Shown here: positions 2,244 through 33,527 of the stretch, piece after piece
How positions within the stretch are numbered: the first letter of the stretch is position 1
Layout: the number at the start of each line of letters is the position of its first letter
Assembly: GCA_026770705.1 (NCBI GenBank)
Contig: JANJGN010000008.1
Location: forward strand, 137,330,001 to 137,394,000
DNA: 64,000 nt
Source: Isurus oxyrinchus
Lineage: Eukaryota
Direction of reading: 5' to 3'
Program-made: the position numbers and the translations under genes
The notes under the pieces: model-generated
Told to the model about the DNA's origin: nothing
Databases searched by the model: none
What the model saw: the letters and a program-made list of their open reading frames with translations, nothing else

Positions 2244-2298
2244 TCAATATTCTGGCTGTGGTAGAAGGATGGAGGGAGGTTCAGAAGGTTGTTGCCTG
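2244..2298 (-). CDS. Host gene exon 5: cytoplasmic tail (C)RQQPSEPPSILLPQPEY*
   Basis: Acceptor actttattttcAG (tandem CAGCAG), phase 2 matches exon 4, TGA at 2246-2244. Confidence 0.75.
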
Positions 2299-2739
2299 CT
2301 GAAAATAAAGTGATTCCAACCAGAAAATATTTGAGACTTTCTGCCCCATTCCTGTCATCGCTGCAACTGCAGTAAACTTGCCTCAGGCCTACCACTATGC
2401 AACTGGGGGTATCTGACTGAATCAATGGTAAATCCTTATAACACATAAATTGATCAACATAGCACCCTGTTCTCCATCTTAGGACTTGGCAGAGATCATG
2501 GTGTATTGTTGATAGTCCACCCAAAGGGGAATATGCTGTAAGTCTTATTGCATGATTGTGGGCTGGGAGAAGTGGAAGTGTTCTCGCAGACCAGGGGTCC
2601 CTGGGATTCTGTACCACATTGGCAGTGCCTTTACCCTCATAGAGCAACCGTGTAGATCAGTTTCAAATCACCCAACAGAAATGCTCAATTATGAGGTATT
2701 CACTCAAGTGGAGTTTACTTATCTAGAACTTAAACTTTA

Positions 2740-2924
2740 GGGGTCATTTTAACATAAATCACTGGGCAGGAAATCCACTGGATTGCACAGAATGCCTGTT
2801 TTCCACCCTGCACAGTCACACTTGCATTGACTTCAATGGCACACTTAATTGGTCATGGTGTAAACCAGTATTGCACCCAATCCTGTCAGAGGTCCGACGA
2901 TGACTTATGTTAAAAACTGTCCCC
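2740..2924. mobile_element. Palindromic MITE
   Basis: GGGGTCATTTTAACATAA ... TTATGTTAAAAACTGTCCCC ends, central palindrome CATTGACTTCAATG. Lies in the last intron of the host gene. Confidence 0.65.
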
Positions 2925-2998
2925 ACTGTCTGCGCAGAGGCTGGGCTTTTTGAAGATGGTTACATTTGCAAACAGGATAGATCCACAACACTACTTAC

Positions 2999-3143
2999 CA
3001 TGTTTTCTTTGCTTTTGAAAACAGAACGAAGAGGATGATGGCATTTGCTATTACTAAAAGGATGAAGATAATAGTCATAACTGTAATGACAACTTTCAAG
3101 TTTTCTTTTCTGGCTAAATATCCACAGTCACATTTTTCAATTT
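2999..3143 (-). CDS. Host gene exon 4: juxtamembrane CxC plus transmembrane helix, (E)IEKCDCGYLARKENLKVVITVMTIIFILLVIANAIILFVLFSKAKKT
   Basis: Acceptor cttttttcttcacAG, donor ATG|GTAAGT, 145 nt, phase 1 to 2. About 25 hydrophobic residues followed by a basic stop-transfer (KAKK). Confidence 0.88.
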
Positions 3144-4642
3144 CTGTGAAGAAAAAAGCCTGAAATTAGTTGAAAATTCCAAATTGTATGAAGAGTTCCA
3201 AACTGTACACCTTAGGTTTAATGGAGAAATACCAGTAAGTGTTTAATGTATTGTTGCATTTGAAATATGTTATCTTAGAAAGCTACGCAATAAGGTGGAC
3301 ATTCAAATTTTATAAGTGATAGTTTCTTGGCTGCACTGTATTCATCCAATTACTGGAAAAAGAACTGAGAGTTTTGGTTGCTGACCAAACTTGTCAGAAT
3401 GGAGGGTTATTCTGCCACATAAATAATCAGTGCTTCAAGAGACAAATGAGGCATTTTGCTAATGAGGATTATTCAAGAACATTAAGTAGAGGTTCAAGGA
3501 TAAACTTAAGGGAACTAAGGATGAGTTCAGAAGGAATGAATATGATTAATTGACTTGCATGTTCTACAGGCTGCACTGAGCTGTTCCATGCATATCTGAG
3601 ATTCGTCAACAACCATAGATCCAGTATGTCCTTTGTATCTATATCTGCCTAAGTAGCAACATAGTTCGACTAGTAGGATATTCTCAGGACTGTCTTATTT
3701 ACTGTCATTAAACCTACTTCGAAGTGGCAGAAACAATAAAACAATTAGAGTGTACATGATGGGTTTTTAATAGCACAGAAAAAGAACTTTGCTTTGCATT
3801 ATGGAACTAACTTCTGATCTTGTTTTGACCTTATTGTCTTGTCCTGTACCTTGTAAAAAGATTTCAGGAAGTCCAAGCGGACAATGTCTACTGGGCTTCC
3901 CTCATCTCCAATCTTGGTGATTTCTTCAAAAATATAACCTGATTTGTTAGACATTACCTCCTATTTTTGAAGCCATGTTGGATGGTTCCTGTCTGTCCAA
4001 GTAATCATATATTGCATACCTAATGATTCCATTAAGCCTCTTTCCTATTATTGATGTAACCAATGGTTACTCAGTTGTACTGTGTCTCTTTTTTAAAGCC
4101 TGGGACATGCAGTGAACAATCAAAATAAAAGCAAAAAAGAAAAGGTTCCCACAGTACATGCTCCATTTTAAAGAGGACCCTCAGGTGGATATTATTTATC
4201 TATTTTCAAGTTCTTAACTCCAAATAAAACAATCTGTTATTATTCATTTTGTTGTCAAAATCTTCATTCAGTTTTAACAGTTGAACATTATCTTCAAGAG
4301 TGAAGACCAATACAAAGTACTTATTTAATACTTCCACCATACCCAGTGAGTCTTTCATTATCTGCCCTTCAAAACCCTTCTGTGGCCCAAAACAGCCTCT
4401 GACAATTCTCTGACATAACACAAGAACAAAAGAAACATTCCGTCCTTTGTCACTGCTCCATCATTCAATACAATCTTCACATAACTGACAAAGCTTTCAC
4501 CATTTATTCTACAATTCTCTATGATCCTCTTTTCCATTATCCTTTCATGATCTAATAAACAACTTGTGTTTTCTAGCACTTAATTTTGTTTCACTGAGTA
4601 CTCAATGCCGCTGATTTGTAGAAGCATTTTTGTTTACACCTT

Positions 4643-13585: not shown

Positions 13586-13707
13586 CTCAAGATTGTCAAT
13601 GAATTCATCCACTGCCTCCTCCATATTTTCCAGGTCATTGCGTGCTTTGATTGCATCTATATTCACCTGATTTTTGAGGGCTTCACTATCTTGTTCAATG
13701 CAAAATA
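13586..13707 (-). CDS. Host gene exon 2: (V)FCIEQDSEALKNQVNIDAIKARNDLENMEEAVDEFIDNLE
   Basis: Acceptor tattgtatttgcAG, donor GAG|GTAAAT, 122 nt, phase 1 to 0, open frame, unique non-repeat sequence. Confidence 0.85.
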
Positions 13708-13909
13708 CTGCAAATACAATAATAGCAGAAATAGAAATGTAGGCTTATACAAGTTCGTAAAATATCAGTCCAGCTAAGGGTAACTAACACTCATCTCAAT
13801 TTAGTGTGATTGGGATGAATAGGCAAAAAGGGGGGAAAAGTGCTTGTGTTGCTTTAAACTGGCTTAATAAGTCCTATGGGAGTCAGCATTTTACTTCCAA
13901 TTAATTCTA

Positions 13910-15090
13910 ACATAAGAACATAGAAATAAGAGGAGCAGTAGTAGGCCATTCAACCCGATGAGCTTGCTCTGCCATTCAGTAAGCTCATGGCTGACCTACC
14001 TCAACTCTGCCTTGCTACCCTATTTCTTGATTTTATTAGTATCTGAAAATCTGTTGGTCTCTGTCCTGAATACACTCAGCAATGGAACATTAACAGCCCT
14101 CTGGGATATAGGATTCCAAAGATTCACAACCCTTTGAGTGAATAATTGTCCTTGGGACTCTCTTCCTGAAAAGGTGGTGGAAGCAGAGTCTTTGAATATT
14201 TTTAAGGCAGAGGTGGATAGGTTCTTGATAAGCAAGGAGGTGATATGTTATCGGGGGTAGGTGAGATGCAGATTGAGGTTAATACTGGATCAGCCATGAT
14301 CTTATTAAATGGCAGAACAGGCTTGAGGGGCCGAGTGGCCTACTCCTGCTCCTTGCTCGTATTGTCCTCTACTTTCAGCCCTAAATGGCTGAACCCTTAT
14401 TCTGAGGCTGTGACCCTGTGTTCTAGACTCCTCAGTTGGTGGTGGGAAACCAGGGGTACATCCACCCAGCATCTACCCTATCAAGGAAAGCCCTTTGTAA
14501 TTTTGCATGTTCCAATAAGATTACCTCTCCTTCTAAAGCCTAGGAAATAACTCCTGTTTGAAAAATTTCCCCCTCCCAGGAATGCAGTTGTTCCCATTGT
14601 AATAAAGACTAACATACCATTTACTTTCCTTGTTGCTTGATGTACCAGCATTTTAACTTCCTATGATACATGTGCAAGGGCACCCAGGTCCCTCTGGATA
14701 TCAATATTTTCCCCTTTCTCACTTTTAAAGTGCTTATACTTGTGTATTGTTCCTAACCAAATGGATAACCTCATATTTCTTCATATTATGTTCCATTTGT
14801 ATATTCTTGCCCATTCGCTAACCTTGTCTATATCATTTACAGATTCTTTGCAACATCCTCACAGCTTACTTTCCCCCATAGCTTTGTGTTATCAGCAAAC
14901 TTGCAGGCATCACATTCGGTCCCTTCATCGAAGTCATTCATCTCATGCAAACTGCAGAGGGGCAAGCACTGGTCCTTTGATACAACACACCAATACAAAA
15001 ATGACCCGTCCATCCCTTCTCTCTGTTTCCCGTCTGTTAACTAGTCCTCAATCTATGCTAATATTTTACCCCCAATCCCGCAATCCAACA
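13910..15090 (-). mobile_element. Degenerate CR1 3' portion
   Basis: ACATAAGAACATAGAA tail, FTQRVVNLWN motif, RT remnants. Confidence 0.75.
14151..14361 (+). mobile_element. CR1 3' end nested antisense in the preceding CR1
   Basis: WDSLPEKVVEAESLNIFKAEVDRFL plus 3' UTR, flanked by duplicated ATTGTCCT. Confidence 0.8.
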
Positions 15091-15784
15091 ACTATTTAAA
15101 AAGGTTGAGGTTATAGTACTTTTTAACATTCTTCTCAGTCAGCTTTGCCAACTCTAGAGTTTGTGGTGTATGTACAGCCCTAGGTCTCTCAGTTTCTACA
15201 TTGCTCTCCTTTAAAATGATACCATTTAGTTTGCATTTCCACTCTCATTCTTCTGGTAATAAGATGTTCCCTTACTATCAGATTGCTAATTATTTCTGGT
15301 TCAATCTTCACAACTAATTGGATGTCACCCATATACCCTGATCTACCTATTATTTTGTATTTTGTGACTGCGAGGTTTATAAATGATACACTCTCCATCC
15401 CCCCCCCCCCCACCACCCCACCCCCGCCACACAATTTTCTGTCCTTCCGAAGGCATTGACTAAGGTCCTTAGAAAAATTCACTTTACTGAAGAATGTTTT
15501 TAACAAATTAAACATCATAAAAAATTGCAGGCTCAAAGGCCTGCATAACCAATCCCTTGCTCTAATGCTTTACGTTCTTATGTTCCTTGAACATCACATT
15601 TTTTGTGTTTTCTCAGTCTAAAAAGATCTCTTTTTTGTATTTTTTTAGTGTTTAAAAAAACCTATTGTTTGATATGTTTTGCCAGGAACTATCAATCAAC
15701 TATCCAGGTGATATCCAGGCAGCAGATCAGACAACTGGGTGATATCCAGAGTATAACGAGCAGCTCAGAGGGAATTTAAGGAGA

Positions 15785-16080
15785 GAAAAGAAAAGGGAAA
15801 TAAAGGAATTGCATTTATGTAGCATCTTTAATGAGCTCAGAACATCCCAATGGGTCAAATCAACCAGTAATATACTTTTTGAAATGCATTCCAGTGTTGT
15901 AATGTTGGTAAACATGGCAACCGACTATGGTAAAGTGGCAGATAAGTGTTGCGCAGGACATTTAGTAAGTACCACTGCTCATACCCACCTGTGAGGATTT
16001 TGGCTTAACATCTTAATTCAACCAAAACAGAACTGCACTGGAGTGTCAGCCTTAATTGTGTGCTCAAACCTCTGGAGCAA
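15785..16080 (-). mobile_element. Deu-domain SINE (SacSINE1-like), degenerate
   Basis: Reverse complement similar to 36345-36780 (GCACTGGAGTGTCAGCCT, TTGCATTTATGTAGC tail). Confidence 0.6.
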
Positions 16081-16099
16081 GTTAAAAATTTTGAATTAG

Positions 16100-16935
16100 A
16101 GTTATTGTCATTTGAAGCAGTTTAGGAAGTATTGATCACAGTATAATAAGCTTAAAATAATGATCGATCGGATATATATGTAGTACAGGCTAAAGTAATA
16201 ATCTGGAAAGAAGCCAGCCATGAGTAAATGAGGGTGAAGCAAAAGAAGATAAACTGGAGAAAAATATTGACAAAGGGGTAGAACTACAGTAGACAATGTT
16301 TAAGCGTGAAATCAATAGTGTTCAGGAGAAATATAGTCCACTGAAAAATAAGAACAATCTAGCCAAGAATGAAATGCTATAATATATAAAGATAATGAAT
16401 TGAAAATAAAGTTGAATCTAAAGAAAAAAGGCACATGCAAAGTACATAAACAATACAGCATGACCATGGGAATATGGTGAGTTTAGGAAAGGGACTAAAG
16501 AGGCAATCAGCAATGCAAAGGGAAAATATGAAATGAAAATATCAAGCCATATGAAAAGAGGTAGTAAAATATTCTGTAGGCACACACAGTAACAAAAGAA
16601 TGAAGGTGTGCTCACAAAGGGATGATCAGTATAAATTCACAGGAAAGTGACTAAAATTATAGGAATAGCGAATAGATATTCTGACCTCAGTTTTCACTGA
16701 TAAGACAGAGAATAACAACAGTAGAAGATTTATAGATGGATGTTACAACAGTTAAGAAGGAGATATTAGGTAAATAACCATGCCTAAGGAGGTCAAGTTC
16801 CAAGGTCCAGGTGGGTTGCAGATACTCAACTTAAGAAACTAGGGAGAAGATAGCAGAGGCACTATTATCCATAATTAATGATTCAATTGAAAAGCAGAAA
16901 ATGGACTGGTGTACAGCAAATCTAATTCCTATCTT
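16100..16935 (+). mobile_element. Old CR1 ORF2 fragment
   Basis: Remnants of the KxFxR, SVFT and K.PGPxG motifs, with many stops. Confidence 0.5.
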
Positions 16936-17348
16936 CAAAATGTTTTTGGCAGTTCACACAGTGAGATAACAAATACTTTAGTCCATGCTTCAAACAGAAA
17001 AAAGGAGTAGAAAGAATTAGAAAGTGGAAGTACAGAATTATAGGTTGAAAAGGGTACACTCATTTTCTTCATCGGAGTGCAATTTACATTTGTTTGAAAG
17101 ATATAGTGAAAAACATGCAAAAACATCCATGTTCCTTCTGATAAAGCGCTCACTGTCTGGTTGGTTTGAGAGATGAATTAATGAAGAAGTAGTTGCTCTG
17201 GTCTCTATGTGTAGCAACATTATAACCATGTTTTTGAGTTTAGAGCTACTACAAATGGCAACGAGGTCATTTCTTCCCAACCTCCCCCCCCGCCCCCCCC
17301 CCCACCTTTGTCATCTGATGAAATTTATTCTGTCATTGCCGAACCATG

Positions 17349-18448: not shown

Positions 18449-19199
18449 AAATAACTTAGCGGGTGTGAATGTGCTTTATACAGCAAGCTCAAAAACGTTT
18501 CATCTTCTCATAGCAATTTTCCACAGCAATTATTGTCATACAACAGAGATTGTTCACTGCACAGAATTCTGATAAAAACATAGCAACATTCTCAGAAAAT
18601 TGAACTGAGCTTGTTCTTTGGAAAAATTAAGAGATTAATGTGAAATCTTTTTCCACACAGGTTAATTCACTCCAGACGATGTTTTTCTGGCTGCAAGCAA
18701 TGAAATGACTTGAAGGGATTTCTATGTCCTCCTGTCAAAATACTGAAAGGGATACGAGCAGATAAACGAGACAGATTGAGGCTTAAGTGGTTCATAAATT
18801 ATCAGAACAAGGAGAACAATGTTTTGCTGTTAGTGGTGAAATTCTTGGATTGGCGTAAGAGAAACAAACAAAATGATTTGTCCAATATTTTCACTTTGTT
18901 ACCTTTGGGTTGAAAGTCTGCGGTGCGATATTTGTAACACATGAGCATCAAATTATTGTACCAAATATATTACCTGGACTTTCATCCCACATCTCACTAA
19001 ATACGCAGTATACACATTTACATTTGCTCTTTATCTGCCACAATCCAGATAGCACAAGTGTGTTAGAGGAGCCTCGGCCCCTGAAATTGTCCAAGTTATG
19101 AGGTTCTTGCAAGCTGGACATGAGCAGGGACTGCAGGAAAGATGAGCGAACTGACCACGACACCATGGTACAGGGAGCCATTCAAGTGGGTGGGGGAGG

Positions 19200-19710
19200 A
19201 AATAGGAACGTAATAGTGGTAGGGGGACAGTATAATTAGGTACTGTTCTCGCAGTCTTGAGCATGAGTCCCGAAGGCTGTGTTGCCTGCCTGGTGCCAGG
19301 GTTGAGGAATCTCCTCAAGGCTGGTGAGGAACTTGGAGTTGGAAGGGAAGGATCCAGTTGTCGTTGTCCACATTGGTATCAACGACATTGGTGAGACTAG
19401 AAAGGAGGTAATGCTGAAAGAATTTGAACAGTTAGGAGCTAAACTAAAAAGCAGAACCTCCAAGTTAATAATCTTGGGATTACTACCTGAGCCACTGGCA
19501 AACTGGCATAGGGTAAATAAAGTCAAGGAGTTAAATGCGTGGCTCAAAGATTGGTGTGGGAGCAATGGGTTTCAGTTCATGGGACACTGGCACTAGCACT
19601 GGGGTATAAGGGAACTGTTTCAGTGGGACAGGCTTCACTTGAAACGTGGTGGGGTCAGTGTCCTGGCAAACTAAATAACTAGGGCTGTAGAGAGGGCTTT
19701 ACATAAATGG
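19200..19710 (+). pseudogene. CR1 ORF1 SGNH/GDSL esterase domain, disrupted
   Basis: NVIVVGDSIIR, CCLPGAR, VVVHIGINDI, GLLPEP and WDRLHL motifs. Confidence 0.85.
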
Positions 19711-19944
19711 TGGTGGGAGGTGGGGGTGGGGGGGGGGGGGGGGGGGGGGGGGGGAGGTGGTGGGTGGTCGGATGGTTCTGGAGAGGGAATACATAGGCTT
19801 ACAAAGCAAAAGGATATGGCAGCATTGCAGGGCAGCTATTTAGGTAATGATACCCAGAGTGTGACAGGAAGGGACAGAGTGTACAAACATAAAAATGCAG
19901 CAGCAAATAATTCAAAGGGGGAAAATAGTAAAAAGGCAAAATTA

Positions 19945-22700
19945 ATGGTTCTTTACTTAAATGCACATAGTATTTGGAACAAAATAAATGAACTAACAGC
20001 ACAAATAGAGGTTAATGGATATGATCTTATAACCATTATGGAGACATGGTTACAAGGAGATCAAAGCTGGGAACTTAATATGCAGGAGTATGTGACTTTT
20101 TGAAAGGACAGGCAGGAATGAAAGGGTGGTGGGATAGCTTTGTTAGTATGAGATGGAATAAGTACGATAGCAAGAAATGATCTTGGATCAGAAGATATAG
20201 AATCCATATAGGTGGGGGGAAGAAACAACAAGGGGAAGAAGACATTGGTGGGAGTAGTCTATAGGCCCCCTAACAGTGGCTATACTGTAGGACAGAGAAT
20301 AAATCAGGAGATAATGAGGGCATGTTAAAAAAGTAGTATATTAATCATGGGTGACTTTAATCTTCACGTAGATACATAGATTGGGAAAAGCAAATTGGCA
20401 GAGATAATCATGAGCAGGAATTCATAGCGTGTATATTGAACAGTTTCCTAGAACGATATGTTGTGGATCCAACCAGAGATCAGGCTATTTTGGATCTGGC
20501 AACGTGTAATCAGACAGGTTTAATAAATGATCTCAGAGTAAAGGATCCCTTAGGAAACAGTGACCATAACATGGTAGAGTTTAGCATTCGGTTTGAGAGT
20601 GAGAAACCTGGGTCGGAAACAACTGTGCTAAACTTAAATAAGGGTAATTACAAAGGAACGAGGGCAGAGTTGGCTGGAGTGGACTAGGAAAGGAGTTGAG
20701 CAGAAAAGATGAACAATAGCAGACGTTTAAGAAAATAGTTCATGACTCACAAAAAAGATATATCCTAGTGAGGAAGAAGGATTCTAGGAAGGGATAAACC
20801 AACCATGGTTAACCAAGGAAGTTAAGGATAGTATCAAACTGAAAGAAAAAACATACAATGTGGCAAAGATTAGTAGTAAGCCAGAGGATTGGGAAAGTTT
20901 TAAAAACCAACAAAAATGACCAAAAAAATAAAGAAGGAGAAAATAAATTTTGAGGGTAAATTAGCAAGTAATACAAAGACAGACAGTAAGAGCTTCTTTA
21001 AAAATATAAAAAGGAATAGAGAGGCCAAAGTGAACTCAGGCCCCTTAGAGAATGAAGTTTAGGAAATAATAATAGGGAACCAGGAAATGGCAAAGGAGTT
21101 GAATAAATACTTTGCATCAGTCTTCACGGTAGAACACACCAATAGCATTCCAAAAATACCAAATAATCAAGGGGCAAAAAGCCCGGGGGTGGAGGTGGGG
21201 GGTGAGGAAATAAATACAATATCTATTACTAGAGAAAAAGTACTAGGGAAACTAATGGGGCTGAAGGCCAATAAGTTCCCTGGACCTGATGTGTTGCATC
21301 CTAGAATATTAAAGGAATAGTTATAGAGAAAGTGCATGCACTAGTAGTAATCTTCCAAGAATCCTTAGATTCTGAAAAAGTCCCAGAGGATTGGAAAACT
21401 GCCAATGTAGAACCTTATTCAAAAAGGGAGGGAGACAAAAACAGGTAACTATAGGCCAGTTAGCTTAACATCTGTCATTGGGGAAATGTTAGAGTCTATT
21501 ATACAGGTTTTATTAGCAAGTCATTTAGAAATACATAATATAATTAAGCAGAGTTAGCAGGGCTTCATGAAGGGGAAATCATGCCTGACAAATTTACTAG
21601 AACTCTTTGAGGAGGTAACAAGCAGGATAGGTAAAGATGAATCAGTAGATGTAATATATTTGGATTTCCAAAAGGCATTTGTTAAGATACTGCAAATAAG
21701 GCTACTTAATAATATGAGAGCCCATAGTATTGAGGATAGTATGTTAGCATTGATAGAGGATTGGCTAACTAATAGAAGACAGAGTTGGGCTAAGGGGGGC
21801 ATTTTCAGGATGGCAAACTGTAACTAGTGGAGTGCCACAGGGACCAGTGCTGGGGCCACAATTATTTACAATATATATTAATGACTTGGATGAGGAAAGT
21901 GAATGCACTATTGCCAAGTTTGCAGATGACACAAAAATAGGTGGGAAAGCAAGTGGTGAGGATGACACAAAGTATACAGCGGGATATAGACAGGTTAAGT
22001 GAGTGGGCAAAAACTTGCCAGATGGAATATAATATGGGAAAATGTGAGGTTATACACTTCAGCAGGAAGAATAGAGGAGCGGAATATTATTTAAATGGGG
22101 AAAGACTGCAGAAGGCTGCAAAACAGAAGGATTTGGATGTCCTTGTGCATGACTTGCAAAAAGTTAGCATATAAATTCAACAGGTAATAGGGAAGGCAAA
22201 CGGAATGATGGCCTTTATTTCAAAGGGAATGGAGTATAAAAATAGGGAAGCCTTGCTAAAACTATACAAGGCACTAATTAGATCACAGCTAGAATACTGT
22301 GAACAGTTTTGGTCCCCTTATCTAAGGAAAGATATACTGGCATTGGAGGCAGTCCAGAGAAGGCTGATCCCAGGTATGGAGGGATTTTCTTATGAGGAGA
22401 GGTTGAGTATGTAGGGCCTGTACTCGTTGGAGTTTAGAAGAATGAGAGGCAACCTTACTGAAATATATAGGGGGCTTGACTGGGGAGATGATGAGAGGTT
22501 GTTTCCCCTTGTGGGAGAGTTTAGGGTATAATCTCAGAGTAAGGGGTCACCCATTTAAGACAGAAATGAGGAGGAATTTCTTCTCTCAGAGGGTATTAAA
22601 TCTGTGGAATTCAATACTGTAAAGGCATTAAGTATATTCACAGCTGAGATAGACAGATTTTTAATCAGTAAGGGAATCAAGGGTTATGGGGAAAGGGCAG
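19945..22700 (+). pseudogene. CR1 ORF2 endonuclease/reverse transcriptase, disrupted
   Basis: [46 protein letters not shown] and KFADDTK motifs, with stops and frameshifts. Confidence 0.9.
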
Positions 22701-23214
22701 GAAAGTGGAATTAAGGATTATCACATTAGCCCTGGTCTCAATGAATGGTGGAGCAGACTTGATAGGCCACGTGGCCTACTTCTGCTCCTACGTCTTATGG
22801 CCTTATGATCTTATGGTGTGTTCCAAGTGCAAAACAGCCTTAGAAAAACATAGCAAGGAAGATAGCTGGGGCTTCAAAATGAAAAGTTCCCATACCAAGC
22901 AATAATTTAACTCTGATGGACCTAACAATGTGTTTAGGTAAACATCATGGGTCAGAATTTCCTGGATTAGACTTTGTACACATCTACACCCAATGTTGTG
23001 CCAATCTTGTCATTGGCAACTTGCAGCAAAAAGGTAAATCTATTGGCATCAGAGTGTAGAAATTTGGTGTAAAACAAATGGAATTAAGTGAACTATCAGA
23101 GTTCAAGGAAACTGCAGCATGTAGACCATTTCCTCTCTTATGACCCACTTTATCTTATTTATGTTAAGAAAATTAAAGTTTGAAGTCAGCAAGCCATTGT
23201 TTATGCACAGTTAG

Positions 23215-23460
23215 CACAACAACAACTTGCATTTGTGTAGCAGCTCTAACATAGTAAAATGTACCAAGATGCTTCATAGGAGTGCCAACAAAGCTTAACA
23301 CCAAACTAAATAGGTAGAGATAAGTTTGATTATCAAAAGCTTGGTGAATAAAATAGGTTTCAAGCAATACTTGAAAACAGAAAAGAGTAATGGACAAATA
23401 AGTAAAGATATTTGGGGAGGCAGAGCTTAGAGCATAGACTGATTAAGTCACAGCCACGAT
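23215..23460 (-). mobile_element. L2-like LINE 3' end
   Basis: AACAACAACTTGCATTTGTGTAGC tail, resembling the Deu-SINE tail. Confidence 0.5.
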
Positions 23461-24247
23461 GATGAGCTGTATATTTTTGTATTTTTTGTGATTATGTTTC
23501 CTGTGTAGAAATCTGTAGGAGGGTGTGTGTCCAGGGTTAAATAAACAAGGGGAGGTTACTAGAGATTGGTGGTTTGTGAGGTCTAAGATATGAAAGGTTA
23601 AAGATGTTAGGTTTGTGTATTTGTAATGAGAGTTTATGATGGGTTTGAGTTACAAGTAAATAGGTTGGATCTGAAATTTGCATTTTGAGTTAAGTTGGGA
23701 AATTGATTTTTTTTAGCTGTGAATTTCAAAAGGGAGTTCGGGGACAGAACTTTTTGTTCGGTGTGGGGGTGCGCGCCTGACACATTCGAGCATAAAATAG
23801 AGCATGATGATGTCTGGTGAGCATCCTGACGTCATTGCCCACTCATGTGATATTTTGCTCAGCAAGTGTGGGAACCATGCCCACCCATTAATTAAGAGGC
23901 CAGTTAAGGCCATTAAAAAGTCAATTGGCATCGATTTTTCTTTGCCCATGCAATTTTGCCCTCATCGCACGGGCAAAAATGAGCAGGCGGCCGGTAAAAA
24001 TGTCAAAAACCTCATCCACAGGTGGGACAAAAAGAGTGAGCAGAACTGCCAGTGTGAGTAGTGAGGAGTTGGTAGATAGTCTGCTGCTGGTGACTTACTG
24101 GTGCTTGGCAACTCCATCTCTGTTTGGGGCTTCATTGTTAGCATTGCCAGGCTTCATTTCAGGACTTCATGGTATCTCCAAGGACCCCTGAGAATTTAGA
24201 CAGTGTGGACTCTTCCAGGTATCAGACAGCCTTCCTTTACCCTGGTA

Positions 24248-25445
24248 ATGGGGATTGTGCTCTCCACTGGTGGCACCTCCTCCTCTGAGGAAGAGAGGGA
24301 CAGAAGGGAGAGGAGGTCAGGTGTCCCCATGCAGCTTCCAGAAGAACAACCTGTGGGAGGAGAGGGGCAGGCAGAGGGTGGGGCAGGGACAGCTGGTAGT
24401 TCAAGGTGGAAGGTGCTGCAGAAGACGCCACTATCCTGCTGCCAGGGTTTACAGGCAGTGGTAGAGCTATTTCAATATTCATGAGGTGCAATGCTGAAGG
24501 AGGCTTTGCTTCTCAAGGGAGTCAGTGAATCCATCTGTCAGTTGATTGGGCCTGAGATCAGCTCTGACTGTGTGGAAGGACACCCCATGCCAGTGGCCCT
24601 GAAGGTCACAGTGGCCCTCATCTTCTATGCCTCTGGCTCTTTCCAGGGTTCAGTGGGGAATCTGTATGGAGTCTCCCAATTAGCTGTCCACAGTTGCATC
24701 AAGCTGCTGACAGAAGCTCTGTTCAGGTGGGTATTGACTTTCATTCATTTTTGTATGGAGGAGGCCAGCCAGGCTGAGTGAGTCAGAGGGTTTGTAGCGA
24801 TTGCAAGGTTCCCCCTCGTTCAGGATGCAATCAATTGCACACATGTGGCCCTCAAGGTGCCAGTAGGTCAGCCGGGTTCCCTCACTAACAGGAAAGGGTT
24901 TCACTCCATGAACATGCTGATAGTGTGTGACCATAGGATGCAGATTCTGCAAGTGTGTGCAAGGTACTCTGGCAGCTCCCATGATGCGCACTCCCAGGTC
25001 CCGAGGCTCTTCAATGCTCAAGCCCAGCTGGATGGATGGCTGCTGGGTGACAAGGGCTATCCCTTGAAAAGGCGGCCTATGATGCCTCTCTGCCACCCAA
25101 GAACAGAGGCAGAGCAGCGTCATAATAGAAGTCATGCCTCCACAAAGATGGTGATAGAGACGACCATTGGCCTTCTGAAGACTTGCGTCCGATGCCTGGA
25201 CCATTCAGGGGGAGCACTACACTACCCACCCCAGAGTGGTCACATGCAGCACTCTCCACAACCTGCATCTGGCAAAGAGGGACCCACTGGGGAAAAAGGA
25301 TGTGGATGCAGCTGTACAGGCCATAGATGATGAATCCACTGGTGAATCAGAGGAGGAGCACAGTGAGGATGTGGAGGCAGACCTCCGTAACCTCCCTGGA
25401 GGCAAAGAAAGCAGGGATGCCTTGATTCAATGTTCCATCAGCTAG
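24248..25445 (+). pseudogene. Harbinger (HARBI1-like DDE) transposase, disrupted
   Basis: FYASGSFQ...GVSQ HTH, AINCTHV, NRKGFHSMN, GSSHDA, LLGDKGYPL, HNRSHASTKMVIETTIGLLK and LHNL motifs. Confidence 0.92.
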
Positions 25446-25739
25446 GCTGCCAAATAAGTGCTACCACCTCATGCCAGGGCTGCCGCATCCATGCCAGATG
25501 TCTGAAATGGCGCTTTCCTTTGACCATAAAGTCCATTCAGCACCTGTGCAACGAAGTTTCAAGCCACCCATGTCCAGCATTACATACTGGCATACCCTGC
25601 GCCACATTAAATAAAAAAGATGAAGCATACTCAGGCCATTACAACAAATGAAAATTTATCTCCAACCCAGACCAGTTAAAATAAACAAAATGTTGCAAAG
25701 CAAAAGATCACCTGTGACCAGTCTCTCCTGTGCTCATGG

Positions 25740-27235
25740 TGCCTTAAACTTATGTTTGCCAGTACTGCGTCTTTGTGCCCCCCCGCCCTCGCTGACTCTG
25801 CTGTCCTGTTGACCTTGATGACCTTAGTGATCATCCTCTGGCCAGTGGAACATGTCCTGGCCTGGTCATTGGCACATGGGCAGAGGAGATGCTGCCATCA
25901 TCAAAAGCACCCTGACAGGAACCCATAGAGATGACAGGCAGCTTGTGCATCAACATGAGGTCGTTCTGGACCTCCCTGCTCACCATTGATGGACTTAGCT
26001 GGGATACTGGGTACCTCATCCATCTCCACAGACACTGACCATCTGAGGTCATTACCCATGTGAAGGCTTGCAGGTCCCCTGATTCTTTTCCTCGAGCTGC
26101 CTCTCCATGAGAGTCGCCACTCTCTCAATGGAGGAGGTTGTGCGCTTCGCCGTGAGGGTCAACACAGTGCTTATGCTCCACGTGGAATCCTCCATAACGG
26201 GGACCGTGGCACACATACCCTCATGGAATCCTGTCAGATCCTCCAACACATCTCACTGGACATCCAGCATCTGCTGCCTAATGGACAACTCCGGAGGCTC
26301 ATCATCGGCCTTCGACTCAGCATTGTTCTGGTCTCCAGCAGCCCTCTGACTGCTGGCACCCTGAGCATTCTCTCCCTCTGCCTGCGACTCAAACAATTGT
26401 GAAGCGCCCTCACCACTGTTCACCAACATTCTAGCCAAAGATCTAATGCCCACCGAGGTGCTGGTATCTGCACTGGTGCCTGGTTCAGAGAGCAGGTGCA
26501 ATGCAGGTGCATCTGGAGCCTGGGGTCCTCTGGCATCAGAGGTGTGTCTTCGGAGTCCTGTGATTGGCTGTAGGGTGGCAAACCTAAGGGAGAACAACAA
26601 CATGTCATTAGTTTAAGTGATCACACTGTCGCTGTGCATGCCAGGCACCCTGGTGAGACCATGGAGATCTGCATCATGGTGCCATCGTCTTTCAACGATC
26701 AATGGGGAATCCAGTTTTGAGGCTCCCATCAATGATGAGACTACAGAAGAATGTTTGCACCATCCGAAACTCTTACCTCAGTGCACTGCACTCTTACCTT
26801 CATCTGACACCCCAGCCTCCCTGCAGCCGGTTGACCTAGGTGCGTGTCGCCTCTCCAGCTCCAAGGCGTCCTACTCGTATCTGGATCAGATTTGAAGGTT
26901 AGCTGGTCCACAACCTTTCAATATTGTAATGGACCGTCTTCCCCTGAAAGGGTAGAGGAGCACTCTCTACCTGCAGCGCCATTGCAGCCTGGCCAACACC
27001 ACCTGAGGAGCACCTTGCAGAGCCCTCCAAGTCGTGGCCCTCAAGCCACAAGGCACTCAGTCCGAGCAGCCAGGGCTCACCCTTGGCCAGCTCCGGCATC
27101 ATTGACAGTTGGCACTCAGACTCTAATGCTCTTGAGCTCCATGGGGGGTTGGCCACACTTAACACTTCAACACACCGATCCATGCCAACACAGTACTCAC
27201 CCATCCTGAGTGCAGCAAGTTGTAATCATGGCTGC
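25740..27235 (-). pseudogene. Harbinger accessory gene, Myb exon largely deleted
   Basis: Homologous to 61200-63043, with donor GG|GTGAGT ~27200, acceptor ~26585 and a coiled-coil SIRQQMLDVQ...SIERVATLMERQL. Lacks the PRFS..W Myb segment. Confidence 0.75.
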
Positions 27236-28289
27236 TGACCAGCACTACCGGTTTTAAACAGGCCACCAAGTCACCATTGGATCTAACAGCTGACATGCAC
27301 CCGCCCGCCCCTTCCCGACCATTGGGGTGTTGCCATTCATGCTTGGTGGGCCTTAATTGGCCTGCCAGTGTGAAATCGCGGTCGGGGGCCAATCACAGGC
27401 AGCGGGCCATTTCCCAGGCCCTCCCTGGCCCACTGACCGTGCCCACTGCTAACCTCAAAATTCTGACCCAGAGGTAACAAGGAACATTTGCATCTTACAG
27501 GGGTTCCATGAGTAAATAGGGGAAGGTACATTCAATTTTATTGACCCAAAGTCGAGGCAAAACAGAAAACATGAAAGATTTTTATATTTGGAGAAGTTGA
27601 ATTTCGAAGAGGTGTTTGAGGGCAACGGAACCTGAGATGAAAAGGGAAAACGATATTTAAGGATAGGGGCATTTAACTGTTGAGAGTTGCTGTGAGGGAA
27701 CCCACTGAAGACCAGCTTCTTTTTGTGTGAGCTGGTGAAAATCTGTGAAAGTTTCAATTGGAGGCAGCCATCCACTGTTAAGCCAGGAGAGTCTTTGGTT
27801 TAGGAAACGCTTTGTTTCTAGACCACCTTTTGGAATTCCACATCAGAGTGGAAGTATCTGAGAAATCGTGATTATTAAAGTGACAACAAAATCTTGACTT
27901 GGGTAATATTTACTGGATTTTTATGATTAAAAATCTTTAAGGGGTTTTTGCCAGAAAGGTAGTCTAATTGTGTACTTTTGACCAAACACGTTTTTTGGAG
28001 GTTGTTCTGTAAGATTGTTTTAACTGTGGAACTTTTATCTTGTGTGTTGTGTAAGGTACTATAGTGCAGAGAGAGGCCATAGCTCCTGGCCACATCAAAA
28101 AACCTGGCACATCTGCATATTGGGCTTCTTAAAGGGACATCACTCTTAAAACAATATTACAACATCAACGAGGGGAAATAAAACCAAAAATCACTTACGA
28201 AAACACCATAAAACATCAGAAATAGTGACTTCATGTTTACTTCACCTAAGATGCTAGGTGACAGAGAGAAGGTAAGACTCTAGGAGAAG

Positions 28290-31200
28290 GATTGCCATGC
28301 GTCGCTAACTAAGCAAGTTAAAAATAGTACTAAATTGAAAGAAAAAGCATGCAATTCTGCGAAGATTAGTGGCAGGTTAGAAGATTGGACAGAATATAAA
28401 AAAAAACAAAGAATGACTAAAAAATAATAAAGATGAAAAAATTAGAGTACGAGAGAAAACTAGCTAGAAATATAAAAACAGATAGTAAGTGTTCCTACAA
28501 GTATCTAAAAAGGAAAAGAGTAAATAAAATGAGCATTAGTCCTCTATAGAGTGAGCCTGGGAAATTAAAAATGGAAAATAAGGAAATGGTGGATGAATTA
28601 AACAGATATTTTGCATCTGACTTCACAGTAGAGGATACAAATTACATCCCAGAAATAAGTGTGAAAGAGATGAAAAGGAAGGAGGAACTTAAAACAGTTA
28701 CAATCACCAGGGTGAGAGTTTTTTTTTACTCACTCACGGGATATGGGCTTCGCTGGCTAGGTCAGCATTTATTGCCCATCCCTAGTTGCCCTTGAGAAGG
28801 TGCTGGTGAGCTGCCTTCTTGAACTGCTGCAGCCCATGTGGTGTAGGTACATCCACAGTGCTGTTAGGAAGGGAGTTCCAGAATTTTGACCGAGGGACAG
28901 TGAAGAAACGGTCATATATTTCCAAGTCAGGATGGTGAGTGACTTGAAGGGGAACTTCCAGATGGTGGTGTTTCCATCTATCTGTTGCCCTTGTCCTTCT
29001 AGGTGGTAGTGGTCGTGGGTTTGGAAGATGCTGTATAAGGAGCCTCTGTGAGTTCCTGCAGTGCATCTTGTAGATGGTACACACTGCTGCTATGGTGCAT
29101 CGGTGTTGGAGGGAGTGAATGTTTGCGGATGTGGTGCCAATCAAGTGGGTTATTTTGTCTTGGATGGTATCAAGCTTCTTCAGTGCACTCATCCAAGCAA
29201 GCAGGGAGTATCCCATCATACTCCTGACTTGCACCTTGTAGATGTTGGACAGGCTTTGGGGAGTCAGGAAGTGAGTTACTCGGCGCAGGATACCTAGCCT
29301 CTGACCTGCTGTTGTAGCCACAGTATTTATATGGCTAGTCCAGTTCAGTTTCTGGTCAATGGTAACCCCCAGAATGTTGATAGTAGGGGGATTTAGTGAT
29401 GGTGATGCCATTGAACATCAAGGGCAATGGTTAGATACTATCTTGTTGGATATGGTCATTGTCTGGCACTTGTGTGGCGTGAATGTTACTTGCCACTTGT
29501 CAGCCCAAGCCTGGATATTGTCCAGGTCTTGCTGCATCTGAGGAGTCAGGAATGGTGCAGAATATTGTGCAATCATCAGTGAACATCCCCACTTCTGACC
29601 TTATGATGGAAGAAAGGCCATTGATGATTCAACTGAAGATGGTTGGACTGAGGACACTACCCTGAGGAACTCCTTCAGTGATGTCCTGGAACTGAGATGA
29701 TTGACCTTGAACAATGACAGCCATCTTCCTTTGTGCTAGATGTGACTCTAACCAATGGAAATTTTTCCTCTGATTCCCATTGACTCCAGTTTTGCTGGGG
29801 CCCGATACCACACTCGGTCAAATACAGCCTTGATGTCGAGGGCAGCTACTCTCACCTCACCTCGGGAGTTCAGCCCTTTTGTCCATGTTTGAACCAAGGC
29901 TGTAATGAAATCAGGAGCTGAGTGGCCCTGGCAGGGTGCAAACTGGGTATCAGTGAGCAGGTTATTGCTAACCATGTGCCGCTTGATAGCACTGTTGATG
30001 ATTCTTTCCATTACCTTACTGATGATCGAGAGTAGACTGATGGGGCGGTAATTGGCCGGGTTGGATTTGTCCAACTTTTTGTGTACAGGACATACCTGGG
30101 CAATTTTCCACATAGCCAGGTAGATGCCAGTGTTGTAGCTGTACTGGAACAACTTGGCTAGGGGTGCGACAAGTTCTGGAGCACAAGTCTTCAGTACTAT
30201 TGCCGGAATATTGTCAGGGACCATAGCTTTTGCAGTATCCAGTGCCTTCAGCTGTTTCTTGATATCACGTGGAGTGAATTGAATTGGCTGAAGACTGGCA
30301 TCTGTGAAGCTGGGGACTTCTGGAGGAAGCTGAGATGGATCATCCACTCGGCACTTCGGACTGAAGATTGTAGCAAATTCTTCAGCCTTATCTTTTGCAC
30401 TGAAGTGTTGGGCTCTCCCATCATTGAGGATGGGGATCTTTGTAGAGCCTCCTCCTCCAGTGAGCTGTTTAATTGTCAACCACCATTCATGACTGGATGT
30501 GGCAGGACTGCAGACCTTAGATCTGCTCCGTTAGTTGTGGGATAACTTAGCTCTGTCTATCACTTGCTGCTTATGCTGTTTGGCATGCAAGTAGTCCTGT
30601 GTTATAGCTTCACCACGTTGACACCTCACTTTTAGGTATGCCTGGTGCTGCTCCTGGCATGCCCTCCTTCACTCTTCATTGAACCAGGATTGATCCCCTG
30701 GCTTGATGTTGATGGTAGAGTGGGGGGATATGCCGGGTCATTAGGTTACAGATTACTGAGGAAATTATTAGAACTAAAAGCAACTAAAAGCTAACAATTC
30801 CCCAGGTCCTGATTGACTTCTTCCTAGGTTCTCAAAAGAAATAGCTGCTGAGTAAGTGGATGCATTGATTTCAATTTTCCAAAACTCCCTAGATTCTGGA
30901 AAGGTCCCACCAGATTGGAAAGTAGCAAATGTATCTCCTCAGTTCATGTTAGGAGGAAGACAGAAAGCAGGAAACTGCAGGCCAGTTAGCTTAACATCTG
31001 CCTTAAGGAAAATGCTGGAATTTATTATTAAATAGGTTTAGAGGGGCACTCAGAAAATTTTAATTTAATCAGGCAGTGTCAACATGGCTTTGTAAAAGGG
31101 AAGTCATGTTTGACTAATTTATTCGGGTTCTTTGAAGAGGTAACAAGCAACCTGGATAAAGCGGAAGCTGTGAATGTGGTGTACTTAGATTTCAAGAAGG

Positions 31201-32365
31201 CATTTGACAAGATGCCACATCAAAGGTTACTGCACAAAACAAGAGCTCATAGTGCAGGGGGTAACATGTTAACATGGATAGAGAATTGGTTAGCTAAAAG
31301 AAACAGAAAGCAGGCATAATTGAGTCAATTTTGGGTTGGCAAAATGTAACAAGTAGAGTGACAGGGATCAGTGCTGGGCCCTCAGCTATTTACAATCCAT
31401 ATTAATTACTTGGATAATGGGATTGAATATACAGTTGCTAAATTTGCTGATGACACAAGGATAGGTAGGAAGGTAACTTGTGAAGAGGACATAAAACATC
31501 TGCAATAGGATAAAGATAGGTTAAGTGAGTGGGCAAAAATTTGGCAGATGGAAGATAATGTGGGAAAATACAAACTTGTCCACTTTGGAATATTGAAAAA
31601 ACAGCATATTATTTAAATGGGGAGAGATTGCAGAACTCTGAGGGACAGAGGGACCTGGGCATTCTGGTACACGCATCACAAAAAGTTAGTATGCAGGTAC
31701 AGCAAGTGAATCAGAAGGCAAATGGAATGTTGTTGTTTATTGCAAGGAGAATAGAATATAAAAGTAGGAATGTTTTGCTATAGTTGTATTTCGGGTTGGC
31801 TAGACCGTATCGAGAGTACTATGTACAAGTTTGGTCTTCTTATTTAAGAAAGGGCATCATTACGTTAGAAGTAGTTCAGAGAAGGTTCACTTGACTGATT
31901 CCTGGGATGAGGGGGTTATCCTTTGAGGAAAGTTTGGACAGATTGGGCCTGTATCCATTGCAGTTCAAAAGTTTGGGAGGTGATCTTAGTCCTGAGGGGA
32001 CTTGTCAGGGTGGATGCAGAAAGGACATTTCGTCTTGCTGAAGAGACTAGAACTAGGGGACACAGTTTAAAAATAAGGAGTTTTCAATTTAAGATGGAGA
32101 TGAAAAGAAATGTTTGCTCTCAGAGGGTCATGAGTCTGTGGAACTCCCGTCCCCAGAGAATGCTGGAGGTAGAATCATTGAATATTTTTAAGGCTGAGTT
32201 AAATAGATTCTTGATTGACAAGGGAGTCAAAGGGTATAAGGAGTAGGAAGGAAAGCGGTGTTGAGGCCACAATCAGATAAGCGATAATCTTATTGAATGG
32301 CAGAGCAGGCTTGAGGGGCTGAATGGCCTACTTCTGCTCCTAAGTATTTTGTTTGTGCATTCATA
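28290..32365 (+). mobile_element. CR1 LINE (5'-truncated), split by LINE 28720-30755
   Basis: ELNRYFAS before the insertion. PGPD, KSCLTNL, YLDFKKAF, KFADDT and 3' UTR after it. Confidence 0.88.
28720..30755 (-). mobile_element. 5'-truncated LINE, second family, with long RT ORF remnants (29748-30479, 28782-29411)
   Basis: NYRPISLLSIISKVME, LDIKAVFDRVW, GVPQGSVLSP and KKAAHQHLLKGN motifs, plus an A-rich tail. Confidence 0.9.
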
Positions 32366-32379
32366 TGTAAGCTCTCAAT

Positions 32380-33228
32380 TAATGGAAAGCCTCAGTAACC
32401 TCCCATTAGCAATAGTGGATGGCAAACTGTGAGATGTTTCAAATATCTTAAGTTCCAGTCTGGAAACAGCCAGATGCAATGCCACAACCACTGTCAATGC
32501 CATCCTTGCTCTGCTCTGAGTTTGCAGTTGTGATTGCTAAGTTGGCAGATTTCAGTGAGGACATGCTACTTGAAGTGTGGACCTCTCACATATTTTTCCT
32601 CACTGAGCCTCATCTTTCCATTGATGGAAATGGCTTCCTGTTTAGAGCTCTTCTCCCCCTCCTCTTCCTTTCTCTTCCAGCAGCTTGTCCTGCTCTGCGT
32701 AACCTCTGTTGATTCCCCAGTCACACTGTATTCCAAGGGAATGGCTACCAGCACACCATCTCTTGGTTTATGCAGAAGCACTGAAGTCGGAAAAAAGCCC
32801 TTCATCACCTGCCATACCACTCCCTGTAGAGTTGTGCAACTTGAAACAACCATCAAAGGCAACAAACACTTGTACAATTTTCACAGCAGCCAGCAGAAAG
32901 CATTAGAACACTAACCTGTAAGCAGTTGATGATCCCCTTGAATAGCACTGGTGGAGGTCTTTCCTACCACTGAGTATATATTCAGCTGTGCGGGGTTAAG
33001 AAAGTTACCTGCAGCATCGAGCTCCAAAATGGCAATGCTGACATCAAATCAGCATGGTTTGATCTGCCTGCTCTGCATACATCTGCTGGCCGTTTACTGA
33101 TAGCATATTAAAGCCCTCATCAATCTGGTGTCTGGTGTGTTTTTCCCACACCGTGATTGCCATTTTGGAGGTCTACGGGCAGTCATGTCACCCAAAAAAC
33201 AGGCACAGACAATCCCAATTTTGTGCCC
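32380..33228 (-). mobile_element. Old Harbinger left end with N-terminal transposase remnant
   Basis: Terminal GGGCACAAAATTGG. Minus strand reads LSEEKYVR..VLTEICQL..ASGCFQTG..NISQFAIH..EVTEA. Confidence 0.6.
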
Positions 33229-33487
33229 ATTAAATTGCCGATCTACAGCCCCATAGTTTAGGAACCTTCCGGTACCTCACCCAAATGTTCATTCTTTGTG
33301 TGTGAGTCTCAACAGGGGCTGTTGGCAAAACACCCGCCATAGGAGGCACCACGGCTCAACTCCATTGGGTTAAGAGCAAAAGGGACCGTAATCAAAGTTG
33401 CCACCGGGTGAAATGAAACCACGAGAAATTCATAACCACACATGGTTCAAAAAAATAAAAACCTTCCTCAACTGACAAGTTACTTAC

Positions 33488-33527
33488 CAGAGGTCAGCAC
33501 AAATAATAGAAAGATTAGTGCTGTCAT
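33488..33527 (-). CDS. Host gene exon 1: signal peptide MTALIFLLFVLTS (phase 1)
   Basis: ATG in gtcagcATGa context (A at -3), hydrophobic leader, strong donor CTG|GTAAGT. An in-frame upstream ATG at 33575 has a poor context. Joins exon 2 as ...VLTS-V-FC|IEQ, completing a typical signal peptide. Confidence 0.75.

Follow-up and report, generated by a model that had tools for sequence, protein, structure and literature searches.

A 64,000-nucleotide stretch of the mako (Isurus oxyrinchus) genome, here called the window, raises the question of whether five short and widely spaced segments on its minus strand belong to one gene, and what kind of protein that gene would encode. A preliminary description had joined them into a single-pass membrane protein. 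On the sequence evidence set out below, we regard the locus as a genuine shark gene, whose small membrane-protein product belongs to no known family.

A five-exon gene and its bamboo shark relative

The gene model consists of the following features:

33488..33527, minus strand: exon 1 (coding part), 40 nt; start codon plus the core hydrophobic run of a probable signal peptide, with a phase-1 donor
13708..33487, minus strand: intron 1, 19,780 nt; LINE reverse-transcriptase and DDE-transposase debris
13586..13707, minus strand: exon 2, 122 nt; end of the signal peptide and an acidic amphipathic helix
13434..13491, minus strand: exon 3, 58 nt; Pro-containing turn and a basic amphipathic helix
2999..3143, minus strand: exon 4, 145 nt; Cys78-x-Cys80, transmembrane (TM) segment 91-116 and a basic stop-transfer patch
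2244..2298, minus strand: exon 5 as first proposed, 55 nt; Pro-rich tail with an acidic dileucine-like motif

The five exons total 420 nt and encode 139 residues, a translation identical to that first described, and all four introns (19,780, 94, 10,290 and 700 nt) are GT-AG with phases 1, 0, 1 and 2. Under a rough splice matrix, the donors of all four introns lie at the 96.1-99.8th percentile among 6,655 GT sites and three of the acceptors at the 96.8-99.3th among 8,864 AG sites, the weakest acceptor being that of the proposed exon 5 at 2298 (92.1 percentile). The splice sites of exon 4 are strong, its donor being near-perfect (99.7th percentile), and none of the five exons overlaps repeats found twice in the window. 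The earlier remark that no exon appears in the ORF track holds for the usual track only: exons 2 and 4 each sit in a 56-aa stretch free of stops, and are missing there because such stretches are too short.

A search of 1.84 billion cluster representatives gave just one relative, GCC24930.1 (chiPu_0003333, UniRef100_A0A401S3G2), from the bamboo shark Chiloscyllium punctatum. This hypothetical protein of 81 aa forms a one-member cluster and carries no name or function. It is probably the ortholog of the mako gene, judging from an alignment in which 71 of 81 residues are identical and which runs colinear, uninterrupted by gaps, over both the exon 2/3 and the exon 3/4 junction. The Chiloscyllium model begins at an internal Met, has no signal peptide and takes its end from read-through of the donor; lacking the N-terminus, it is therefore a truncated prediction. 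Homolog support is confined to the final third of exon 2, exon 3 and exon 4, leaving exons 1 and 5 uncovered. Identity is 10/13 over the last 13 codons of exon 2, 14/19 in exon 3 and 46/47 in exon 4, which holds the CxC motif and TM segment. This gradient between exon 4 and the matched ectodomain of exons 2 and 3 (24/32) is significant (Fisher p=0.0025), as a comparison of two protein sequences, mako and bamboo shark, and the ectodomain substitutions at hydrophobic positions are all conservative. The suggestion that the protein is fast-evolving thus falls away, since the CxC-TM exon is nearly invariant and the ectodomain is still 75% identical.

The gap-free match over two junctions, together with intact splice sites and frames, bears out the proposal of a real gene of chondrichthyan origin. 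A pseudogene or chance chain of exons would suit the absence of the gene from nearly all searched protein sets and the fact that transcript support was not seen; we give that reading almost no credence against intact splice sites and reading frames, the 71/81 match in a second species and a significant conservation gradient. Restriction of the family to sharks is plausible. Simulated relatives at least 60% identical to exon 4 were recovered in 100 of 100 cases, and those 45% identical in 9 of 100; absence from the protein sets is nevertheless weak evidence, because no shark protein other than GCC24930.1 was found in them either. A search confined to the open-access literature turned up nothing on the gene or on GCC24930.1 among the papers listed, those on TMEM9 and sharks being judged by title or abstract.

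Elsewhere in the window no neighbouring gene was recognised: when 179 of 761 ORFs of at least 42 aa, those less than 30% repeat-masked, were scanned against Pfam, exon 4 gave the sole match. The window contains no paralog of the gene and no Rfam match, and the one tRNA-like call by ARAGORN lies in repeat sequence. Intron 1 carries RVT_1 at 29751-30530 and DDE_Tnp_4 at 24782-25327, and its sole symmetric phase-1 candidate exon begins at 29899, within the LINE ORF.

Ectodomain and membrane-spanning exon

Exon 1, which lies beyond homolog coverage, is the best candidate for the start exon. Its donor is at the 99.8th percentile, and it ranks first among 21 upstream minus-strand ATG-to-phase-1-donor candidates (3.69; next independent site 2.11), compared with 2.44 for the best of 28 plus-strand control candidates. 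It has no CpG island (CpG o/e 0.2-0.4). The hydropathy of the N-terminus fits the signal peptide proposed for it, which we take to be cleaved after Cys16 by the -3/-1 rule. The amphipathic helical ectodomain also stands, with a hydrophobic moment of up to 0.68 and a net charge of -9 followed by +3, acidic then basic as described, and the hydrophobic residues between positions 30 and 55 are heptad-biased (0.71 vs 0.16). No N-x-S/T sequon occurs in the 139-aa protein, and the only cysteines outside the membrane are 16, 78 and 80, of which Cys78 and Cys80 remain after cleavage at Cys16.

These two residues form the juxtamembrane CxC that had been noted, Cys78-x-Cys80 of exon 4. An AlphaFold2 model of the 81-aa ortholog (single-sequence, pTM 0.39, with the N-terminal 25 ectodomain residues outside it) predicts a helix break followed by a long helix, H20-79 in ortholog numbering, and no strands, which places both cysteines inside a continuous helix. 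An intrachain disulfide is unlikely for cysteines so placed, and Cys78 and Cys80 may instead link chains.

Exon 4 also contains the 19-mer of highest hydropathy in the window (3.07; next 2.56, among 2,170 six-frame stop-free stretches). Its TM segment spans 26 uncharged residues, with Thr94, Thr97 and Asn107 as the polar positions. Long TM segments are described as typical of plasma-membrane proteins, and buried polar TM residues as flagging unassembled subunits for Rer1, in PMC5166505; according to PMC13107469, polar TM residues, Asn included, drive the assembly of single-pass receptor complexes.

The last exon and its alternative readings

The Pro-rich tail ending in Tyr is present as described, but it is one of at least four possible C-termini. 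Its acceptor is a tandem CAGCAG that can be used at 2298 or 2295 in the same frame, the latter giving a form one residue shorter, and the rough matrix scores the two at 0.96 and 6.44, respectively. At least five Pro occur in 1.6% of 4,645 background 17-mers, and the tail (2244..2298) contains no YxxPhi or PPxY motif. The other readings involve three further features:

2189..2295, minus strand: alternative exon, 107 nt (67 nt from acceptor 2255); another frame, with a 13-14-residue hydrophobic stretch
2011..2100, minus strand: possible further exon or 3' UTR (candidate), separated by an 88-nt intron; 29 codons open in phase
2995..3000, minus strand: donor read-through (isoform C); Trp then stop, giving a KKxx-like end as in the Chiloscyllium model

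None of the alternative tails examined contains Tyr. ATTAAA occurs at 2155 and 2135, and in a scan for polyA hexamers the copy at 2155 was the first below the stop of the Pro-rich frame.

The single-pass topology first proposed is supported by the long TM helix of exon 4 and put in doubt by the possible second hydrophobic segment near 2189..2295, which would alter it. The protein might go beyond a single pass if splicing to acceptor 2255 added a second hydrophobic helix down to 2189, making a hairpin or two-TM protein that possibly extends to 2100 or past the left edge of the window; in another version exon 4 is skipped and exon 3, whose end phase suits the alternative exon, is joined to 2298/2295-2189 as a lipid-anchor or short-TM exon. 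The segment is stop-free and bracketed by splice sites in the top 1.5% (acceptors 2295 and 2255 at the 99.5th and 98.6th percentiles, donor 2188 at the 99.4th), its hydropathy of 3.06 is in the top 0.16% of 2,558 background stretches, and of the window's 55 candidate open exons only exon 4 ranks above it (next 2.17). The Pro-rich-frame stop sits 55 nt above donor 2188. Acceptor 2255 is accompanied by a C/T-rich tract and, 26 nt above it, a branch-like motif, so that the Pro-rich codons may themselves be a pyrimidine tract. Set against this, a run of 13-14 residues is short for a TM helix, about 20 acceptors were examined, which brings the corrected chance nearer 3%, and the splice matrix is rough. 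The segment has no Pfam or homolog support and no likeness to exon 4, and no protein of 84-2000 aa with exon 4 was found, which disfavours a long known multi-pass gene. The residues ahead of the run presumably make a poor GPI cleavage site. Overall we consider these readings unlikely.

Read-through of the exon 4 donor would instead yield a resident of the ER or early Golgi, retrieved by a C-terminal KKxx and acting in the manner of a p24/ERGIC-type chaperone or cargo receptor whose luminal part is a coiled coil. The KKxx end appears in both the mako window and GCC24930.1, dilysine motifs are the main retrieval signal for ER membrane proteins according to PMC5166505, and the lack of an N-glycosylation sequon would suit such a protein. 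The dilysine at -4/-3 exists on the read-through form only, however, and not on spliced forms, and the donor that would have to be ignored is the near-perfect one of exon 4. Agreement with Chiloscyllium is weak evidence, because a phase-2 donor after TG gives Trp-stop automatically, and the Chiloscyllium model is a truncated prediction. With a TM segment that is long for an ER protein and no polyA hexamer seen between 2994 and 2300, an ER role appears improbable.

Family assignment, proposed function and known systems

The earlier statement that no family is recognisable agrees with searches of Pfam, the PDB, Foldseek and VIA-align, none of which gave a supported match; the queries for remote and fold searches were single exons and the 81-aa ortholog. 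Word-based protein searches matched 0 of 11 candidates for exon 2 (against proteins of 71-2000 aa), 0 of 20 for exon 4 (84-2000 aa) and 1 of 3 for the ortholog (44-142 aa), this being itself, while an exact look-up of two exon ORFs found no match and is uninformative. The ESM Atlas gave no usable feature match for exon 4, and for the ortholog a best score of 0.80, which is chance level, with generic helices as structure rows. PDB sequence searches returned nothing for exon 2, rows only at E>=0.6, mostly GPCR first-TM helices, for exon 4 and the ortholog, and one profile row at E=1.9. Structure prediction followed by Foldseek, suggested earlier as a check, produced 0 matches for the ortholog model; in VIA-align the best Z was 5.5, with 0 of 48,161 chains at Z>=8 and all rows uninformative long helices, and NCBIfam gave a single row at E=0.07. 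A GPCR or adhesion-GPCR fragment was dropped for want of support, as was a likeness in cysteine spacing to the T-cell-receptor hinge and secretoglobin.

The top Pfam match for exon 4 is Tmemb_9 (PF05434; E=0.011, 16.0 bits), which is also the top match for the ortholog (E=0.00087, 19.6 bits; residues 20-64 to profile positions 21-66 of 145). It is the lone match at E<=0.01 among the 179 non-repeat ORFs, and with the dileucine-like motif of the Pro-rich tail it could indicate a branch of the TMEM9 family that has diverged strongly, keeping the CxC and TM and its binding to an endosomal CLC exchanger while exchanging its luminal domain for another. Both queries, exon 4 and the 81-aa fragment, miss the gathering cutoff of 28.6 bits, and the alignment ends at profile position 66-67. 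The luminal domain of TMEM9 is a three-stranded sheet with two short helices and four disulfides (PMC12403049), against helices and at most three luminal Cys here; TMEM9B is N-glycosylated at luminal N60 (PMC11355779), and a cytosolic helix and C-terminal plug of TMEM9 bind ClC-3, whereas the mako protein has no sequon and shows no apparent conserved cytosolic helix. The deposited TMEM9 chains 9DNX-9DNZ were not matched at E<=10 in PDB sequence searches, and no TMEM9 protein is among the phmmer matches, so that descent from TMEM9 seems very improbable. By analogy with small helical-ectodomain fertilisation proteins, the product might be a tissue-restricted surface protein, for example of gametes, whose exposed helices engage a soluble ligand or a second cell, the TM merely clustering it. 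An ectodomain that changes faster than the TM, a start exon without a CpG island and a rarity in protein sets suggestive of narrow expression would all fit, and IST-superfamily proteins are found in sharks according to PMC12615630, which gives a pair of CXXC motifs as their hallmark. The 139-aa protein has zero CXXC and one CXC, and an ectodomain that remains three-quarters identical; the ortholog model, covering part of the ectodomain, has two helices and no strands, showing neither a four-helix bundle nor a beta-hinge. Such a role is improbable.

Our tentative preference, short of an established case, is for a type I membrane protein whose chains are disulfide-linked and which, as a subunit, uses its TM helix to dock on a conserved partner. 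The signal peptide, once cleaved, would place a helix-turn-helix ectodomain of about 60 residues outside the cytosol, its second helix continuing through the CxC directly into the long TM helix. Chains would assemble in the ER as a disulfide-linked dimer or trimer, the TM packing through buried Asn107, Thr94 and Thr97 against a slowly evolving membrane partner, and the protein might serve as an accessory or assembly subunit that controls how the partner is trafficked, or how active it is, in endosomes or on the cell surface. The working part would then be the CxC-TM segment, rather than ectodomain or tail; the difference in conservation between exon 4 and the ectodomain argues for a function beyond that of a mere lipid anchor. 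High TM conservation also fits a homo-oligomer or channel-like role with no partner. The docking proposal predicts that a partner binds the TM.

It is a long shot that the gene founds a cartilaginous-fish-only family of auxiliary transporter, channel or receptor subunits in shark-specific physiology, its last exon read in two frames; one gene would then give a Pro-rich-tailed single-pass form and another whose hydrophobic anchor is additional or alternative. If absent from bony vertebrates, it would be an ancestral gnathostome gene since lost, or else one that arose in sharks. The protein's architecture is ordinary and so far has no tie to an open biological question, but there is an annotation gap: a TM exon 98% identical in two sharks is represented in the searched collections by one truncated hypothetical model. 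Small single-pass proteins often regulate channels and transporters as subunits that go unnoticed; for TMEM9, the assignment to ClC-3/4 dates only from 2024-25 (PMC11355779, PMC12403049).

Among known systems, TMEM9 and TMEM9B (PF05434), beta-subunits of ClC-3/4/5, share the type I topology with a signal peptide, predicted here, and a CxC ahead of the TM. TMEM9 is a single-helix beta-subunit that docks on ClC-3 by its TM (PMC12403049), a mode proposed for the mako protein by analogy. Unlike TMEM9, the mako ectodomain is helical, Cys-poor and sequon-free in place of a four-disulfide beta-sheet domain, and no long conserved cytosolic domain is apparent. The IST superfamily (IZUMO1, SPACA6, TMEM95, TEX51) likewise combines a signal peptide, helical ectodomain and single TM, and is further marked by spermatid-enriched expression. 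The mako protein lacks the CXXC pair and shows no sign of a beta-hinge, and the shortness of its ectodomain speaks against an antiparallel four-helix bundle. Immune-receptor modules assembled through their TM segments, of the DAP10/DAP12 type and others, are also small single-pass chains whose assembly is driven by polar TM residues, with a disulfide-linked stalk, as described in PMC13107469; for the mako CxC such a linkage is only proposed. In contrast to these modules, its TM segment 91-116 has no acidic or basic residue, its Pro-rich tail has no ITAM or PI3K motif, and its helical ectodomain is much longer.

Exon chain and its surroundings

The five-exon gene for a 139-aa single-pass membrane protein proposed in the preliminary description was reproduced exactly, the spliced sequence amounting to 420 nt and encoding the same protein.

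Exons of the proposed gene
33527-33488, minus strand: exon 1
13707-13586, minus strand: exon 2
13491-13434, minus strand: exon 3
3143-2999, minus strand: exon 4
2298-2244, minus strand: exon 5 as originally proposed

The four introns (19,780, 94, 10,290 and 700 nt; phases 1, 0, 1 and 2) are all GT-AG. On a rough, untrained position-weight matrix, the donors of exons 1 to 4 stand at percentiles 99.8, 98.5, 96.1 and 99.7 among 6,655 GT sites, and the acceptors of exons 2 to 5 at 96.8, 99.1, 99.3 and 92.1 among 8,864 AG sites. Of 21 upstream ATG-to-phase-1-donor candidates exon 1 scores best, and it beats all 28 plus-strand controls. Exon 4 contains the top hydrophobic 19-mer of 2,170 six-frame stop-free stretches. 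Repeats that occur twice in the window touch none of the exons.

An upstream ORF of three codons (33535-33524, minus), its start in good context, has a stop overlapping the main ATG, and an in-frame ATG in poorer context lies 48 nt above it, at 33575; either could tune translation of the main ORF. Neither a TATA box nor a CpG island was found above exon 1 (33528-33900, minus), where motifs that we take to be CCAAT/Y-box-like and Onecut-like were seen by eye.

Self-similarity masking covers 38,834 of the 64,000 bases, and intron 1 holds LINE and DDE-transposase remains. Several related, broken DDE-transposase elements, presumably Harbinger-like, occupy 24680-27200, 42500-46400 and 59200-62800 (DDE_Tnp_4 matches at 24782-25327 and 43003-43425), and degenerate LINE reverse-transcriptase ORFs (RVT_1) lie on both strands at 28700-30600 and 50500-57900. 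An ARAGORN tRNA-Thr call at 52548-52632 (minus), in repeated sequence at a LINE edge and with no Rfam match, is probably spurious. A 60-bp tandem duplication (two copies, 96% match) lies at 38158-38299. No neighbouring gene emerged for synteny, exon 4 alone reaching E<=0.01 among the 179 low-repeat ORFs, of 761, scanned against Pfam; the 30 kb above exon 1 (33528-64000) gave no coding gene among low-repeat ORFs of at least 42 aa, a scan that misses short exons.

A bamboo shark relative and uneven conservation

A phmmer search with exon 4 against 1,835,955,588 cluster representatives returned one protein at E<=0.001, GCC24930.1 of Chiloscyllium punctatum (E=2.9e-20), an 81-aa "hypothetical protein chiPu_0003333" in a single-member cluster. 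The alignment covers residues 42-122 with no gap and spans the junctions of exons 2/3 and 3/4; from the colinearity of the proteins, intron positions appear common to both sharks. This match shows that the gene's core is real and that its source is a cartilaginous fish. Identities amount to 10/13 in exon 2, 14/19 in exon 3 and 47/49 in exon 4. Conservation is uneven: the ectodomain shares 24/32 residues and exon 4 shares 46/47 (p=0.0025). The exon chain of the preliminary description is confirmed and its reading partly supported; the suggestion of a fast-evolving protein is wrong, and the tail it gave is uncertain.

Three word-based protein searches yielded no further relatives. In simulations the scan recovered 100, 82, 26 and 9 of every 100 relatives at 60, 55, 50 and 45% identity, and a similarly constrained bony-vertebrate ortholog should therefore have surfaced if present in the collection. 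Since the scanned representatives included no further shark or ray protein at E<=0.001, the gene is evidently overlooked by gene predictors, and any absence elsewhere is tentative. GenBank already lists a fragment as a hypothetical protein. The collections searched contain neither the signal-peptide exon nor the full N-terminus nor the alternative 3' ends, and listings and beginnings of abstracts in the open literature gave no mention of the gene.

Protein anatomy and alternative tails

Residues 1-16 are signal-peptide-like by hydropathy, and Val14 and Cys16 agree with the -3/-1 rule for the predicted cleavage. An acidic stretch (residues 15-54, net charge -9) and a basic one (55-77, +3) follow; both are amphipathic, and residues 30-55 show heptad bias. 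Once the predicted signal peptide is cleaved, Cys78 and Cys80 would remain as the sole extracellular cysteines, and the protein contains neither a CXXC nor an N-glycosylation sequon. The uncharged 26-residue span 91-116 holds Thr94, Thr97 and Asn107 and is followed by three lysines. An AlphaFold2 model built from just the ortholog (pLDDT 74, pTM 0.39) shows a short helix, a loop and a single helix running from exon 3 through both the CxC and the transmembrane (TM) segment; fold searches with this model were uninformative.

The Pro-rich tail first proposed is one candidate 3' end, with rivals that had been missed. Its acceptor at 2298 (score 0.96) is one half of a CAGCAG pair whose twin at 2295 scores 6.44, the highest value for any acceptor within the 3 kb that follow exon 4; its use shortens the tail by one residue and leaves it otherwise unchanged. 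Read-through of the exon 4 donor adds Trp and a stop, producing a KKxx-like end that matches the Chiloscyllium model, a mechanical consequence of the phase-2 donor. The segment 2295-2189 (minus), which ends at a strong donor (99.4th percentile), also has a second stop-free frame. This frame encodes a hydrophobic 13-mer that stands within the uppermost 0.16% of 2,558 background stretches, and of the window's 55 candidate open exons only exon 4 outranks it. It can be reached from exon 4 through an acceptor at 2255 (98.6th percentile), which has a branch-like motif 26 nt above it, or from exon 3 with exon 4 skipped. The probability of such a signal by chance is about 3% once some 20 examined acceptors are allowed for, which is suggestive, not proof. 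By estimate rather than computation, and for options that overlap, the original frame as main tail and use of the hydrophobic frame each fall somewhat short of an even chance, and read-through is unlikely.

Proposed action and comparison with known families

We tentatively favour, at a little under even confidence and with every mechanistic step inferred, a disulfide-linked accessory subunit. Cys78 and Cys80 would link chains into a small oligomer, the TM helix would dock it on a conserved membrane partner, and the oligomer would serve that partner as an accessory subunit. Selection centred on the CxC-TM stretch, tails that are short in every model and buried polar TM residues argue for this, as does helix geometry, which for cysteines two apart favours interchain over intrachain bonds. 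It is further consistent with polar TM residues, including an Asn, organising single-pass receptor complexes, as one report describes (PMC13107469). Rer1 retrieves unassembled subunits that carry such residues, and a long TM is a usual feature of proteins of the plasma membrane (PMC5166505).

A form that makes a hairpin, has two TM segments or is anchored in another way would suit the hydrophobic frame and is the least improbable rival, if still rather unlikely. An ER-retrieved KKxx protein, which would fit the read-through end, and a tissue-restricted surface or gamete protein are both regarded as improbable. A pseudogene is very unlikely.

An adaptor of DAP10/12 type should carry an acidic residue within its TM as well as a tyrosine motif; the shark protein has neither and was rejected as one. 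The IST superfamily, whose members according to PMC12615630 have paired CXXC motifs and a bundle of four helices, was likewise set aside on the CXXC test. The top Pfam match is Tmemb_9 (exon 4 16.0 bits, ortholog 19.6 bits; cutoff 28.6), confined to the CxC-TM stretch. In TMEM9 the domain facing the lumen forms a three-stranded sheet and carries four disulfides (PMC12403049), and TMEM9B bears an N-linked glycan (PMC11355779); neither applies to the shark protein. PDB sequence searches matched no deposited TMEM9 chain at E<=10, assuming that the searched copy includes them. TMEM9 membership was rejected, and a TMEM9 offshoot, which the confined match would favour, is more doubtful than either the retrieved or the surface protein. 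The product is a small single-pass membrane protein that fits no family tested, its architecture is of a known kind, and by analogy it may work like TMEM9.
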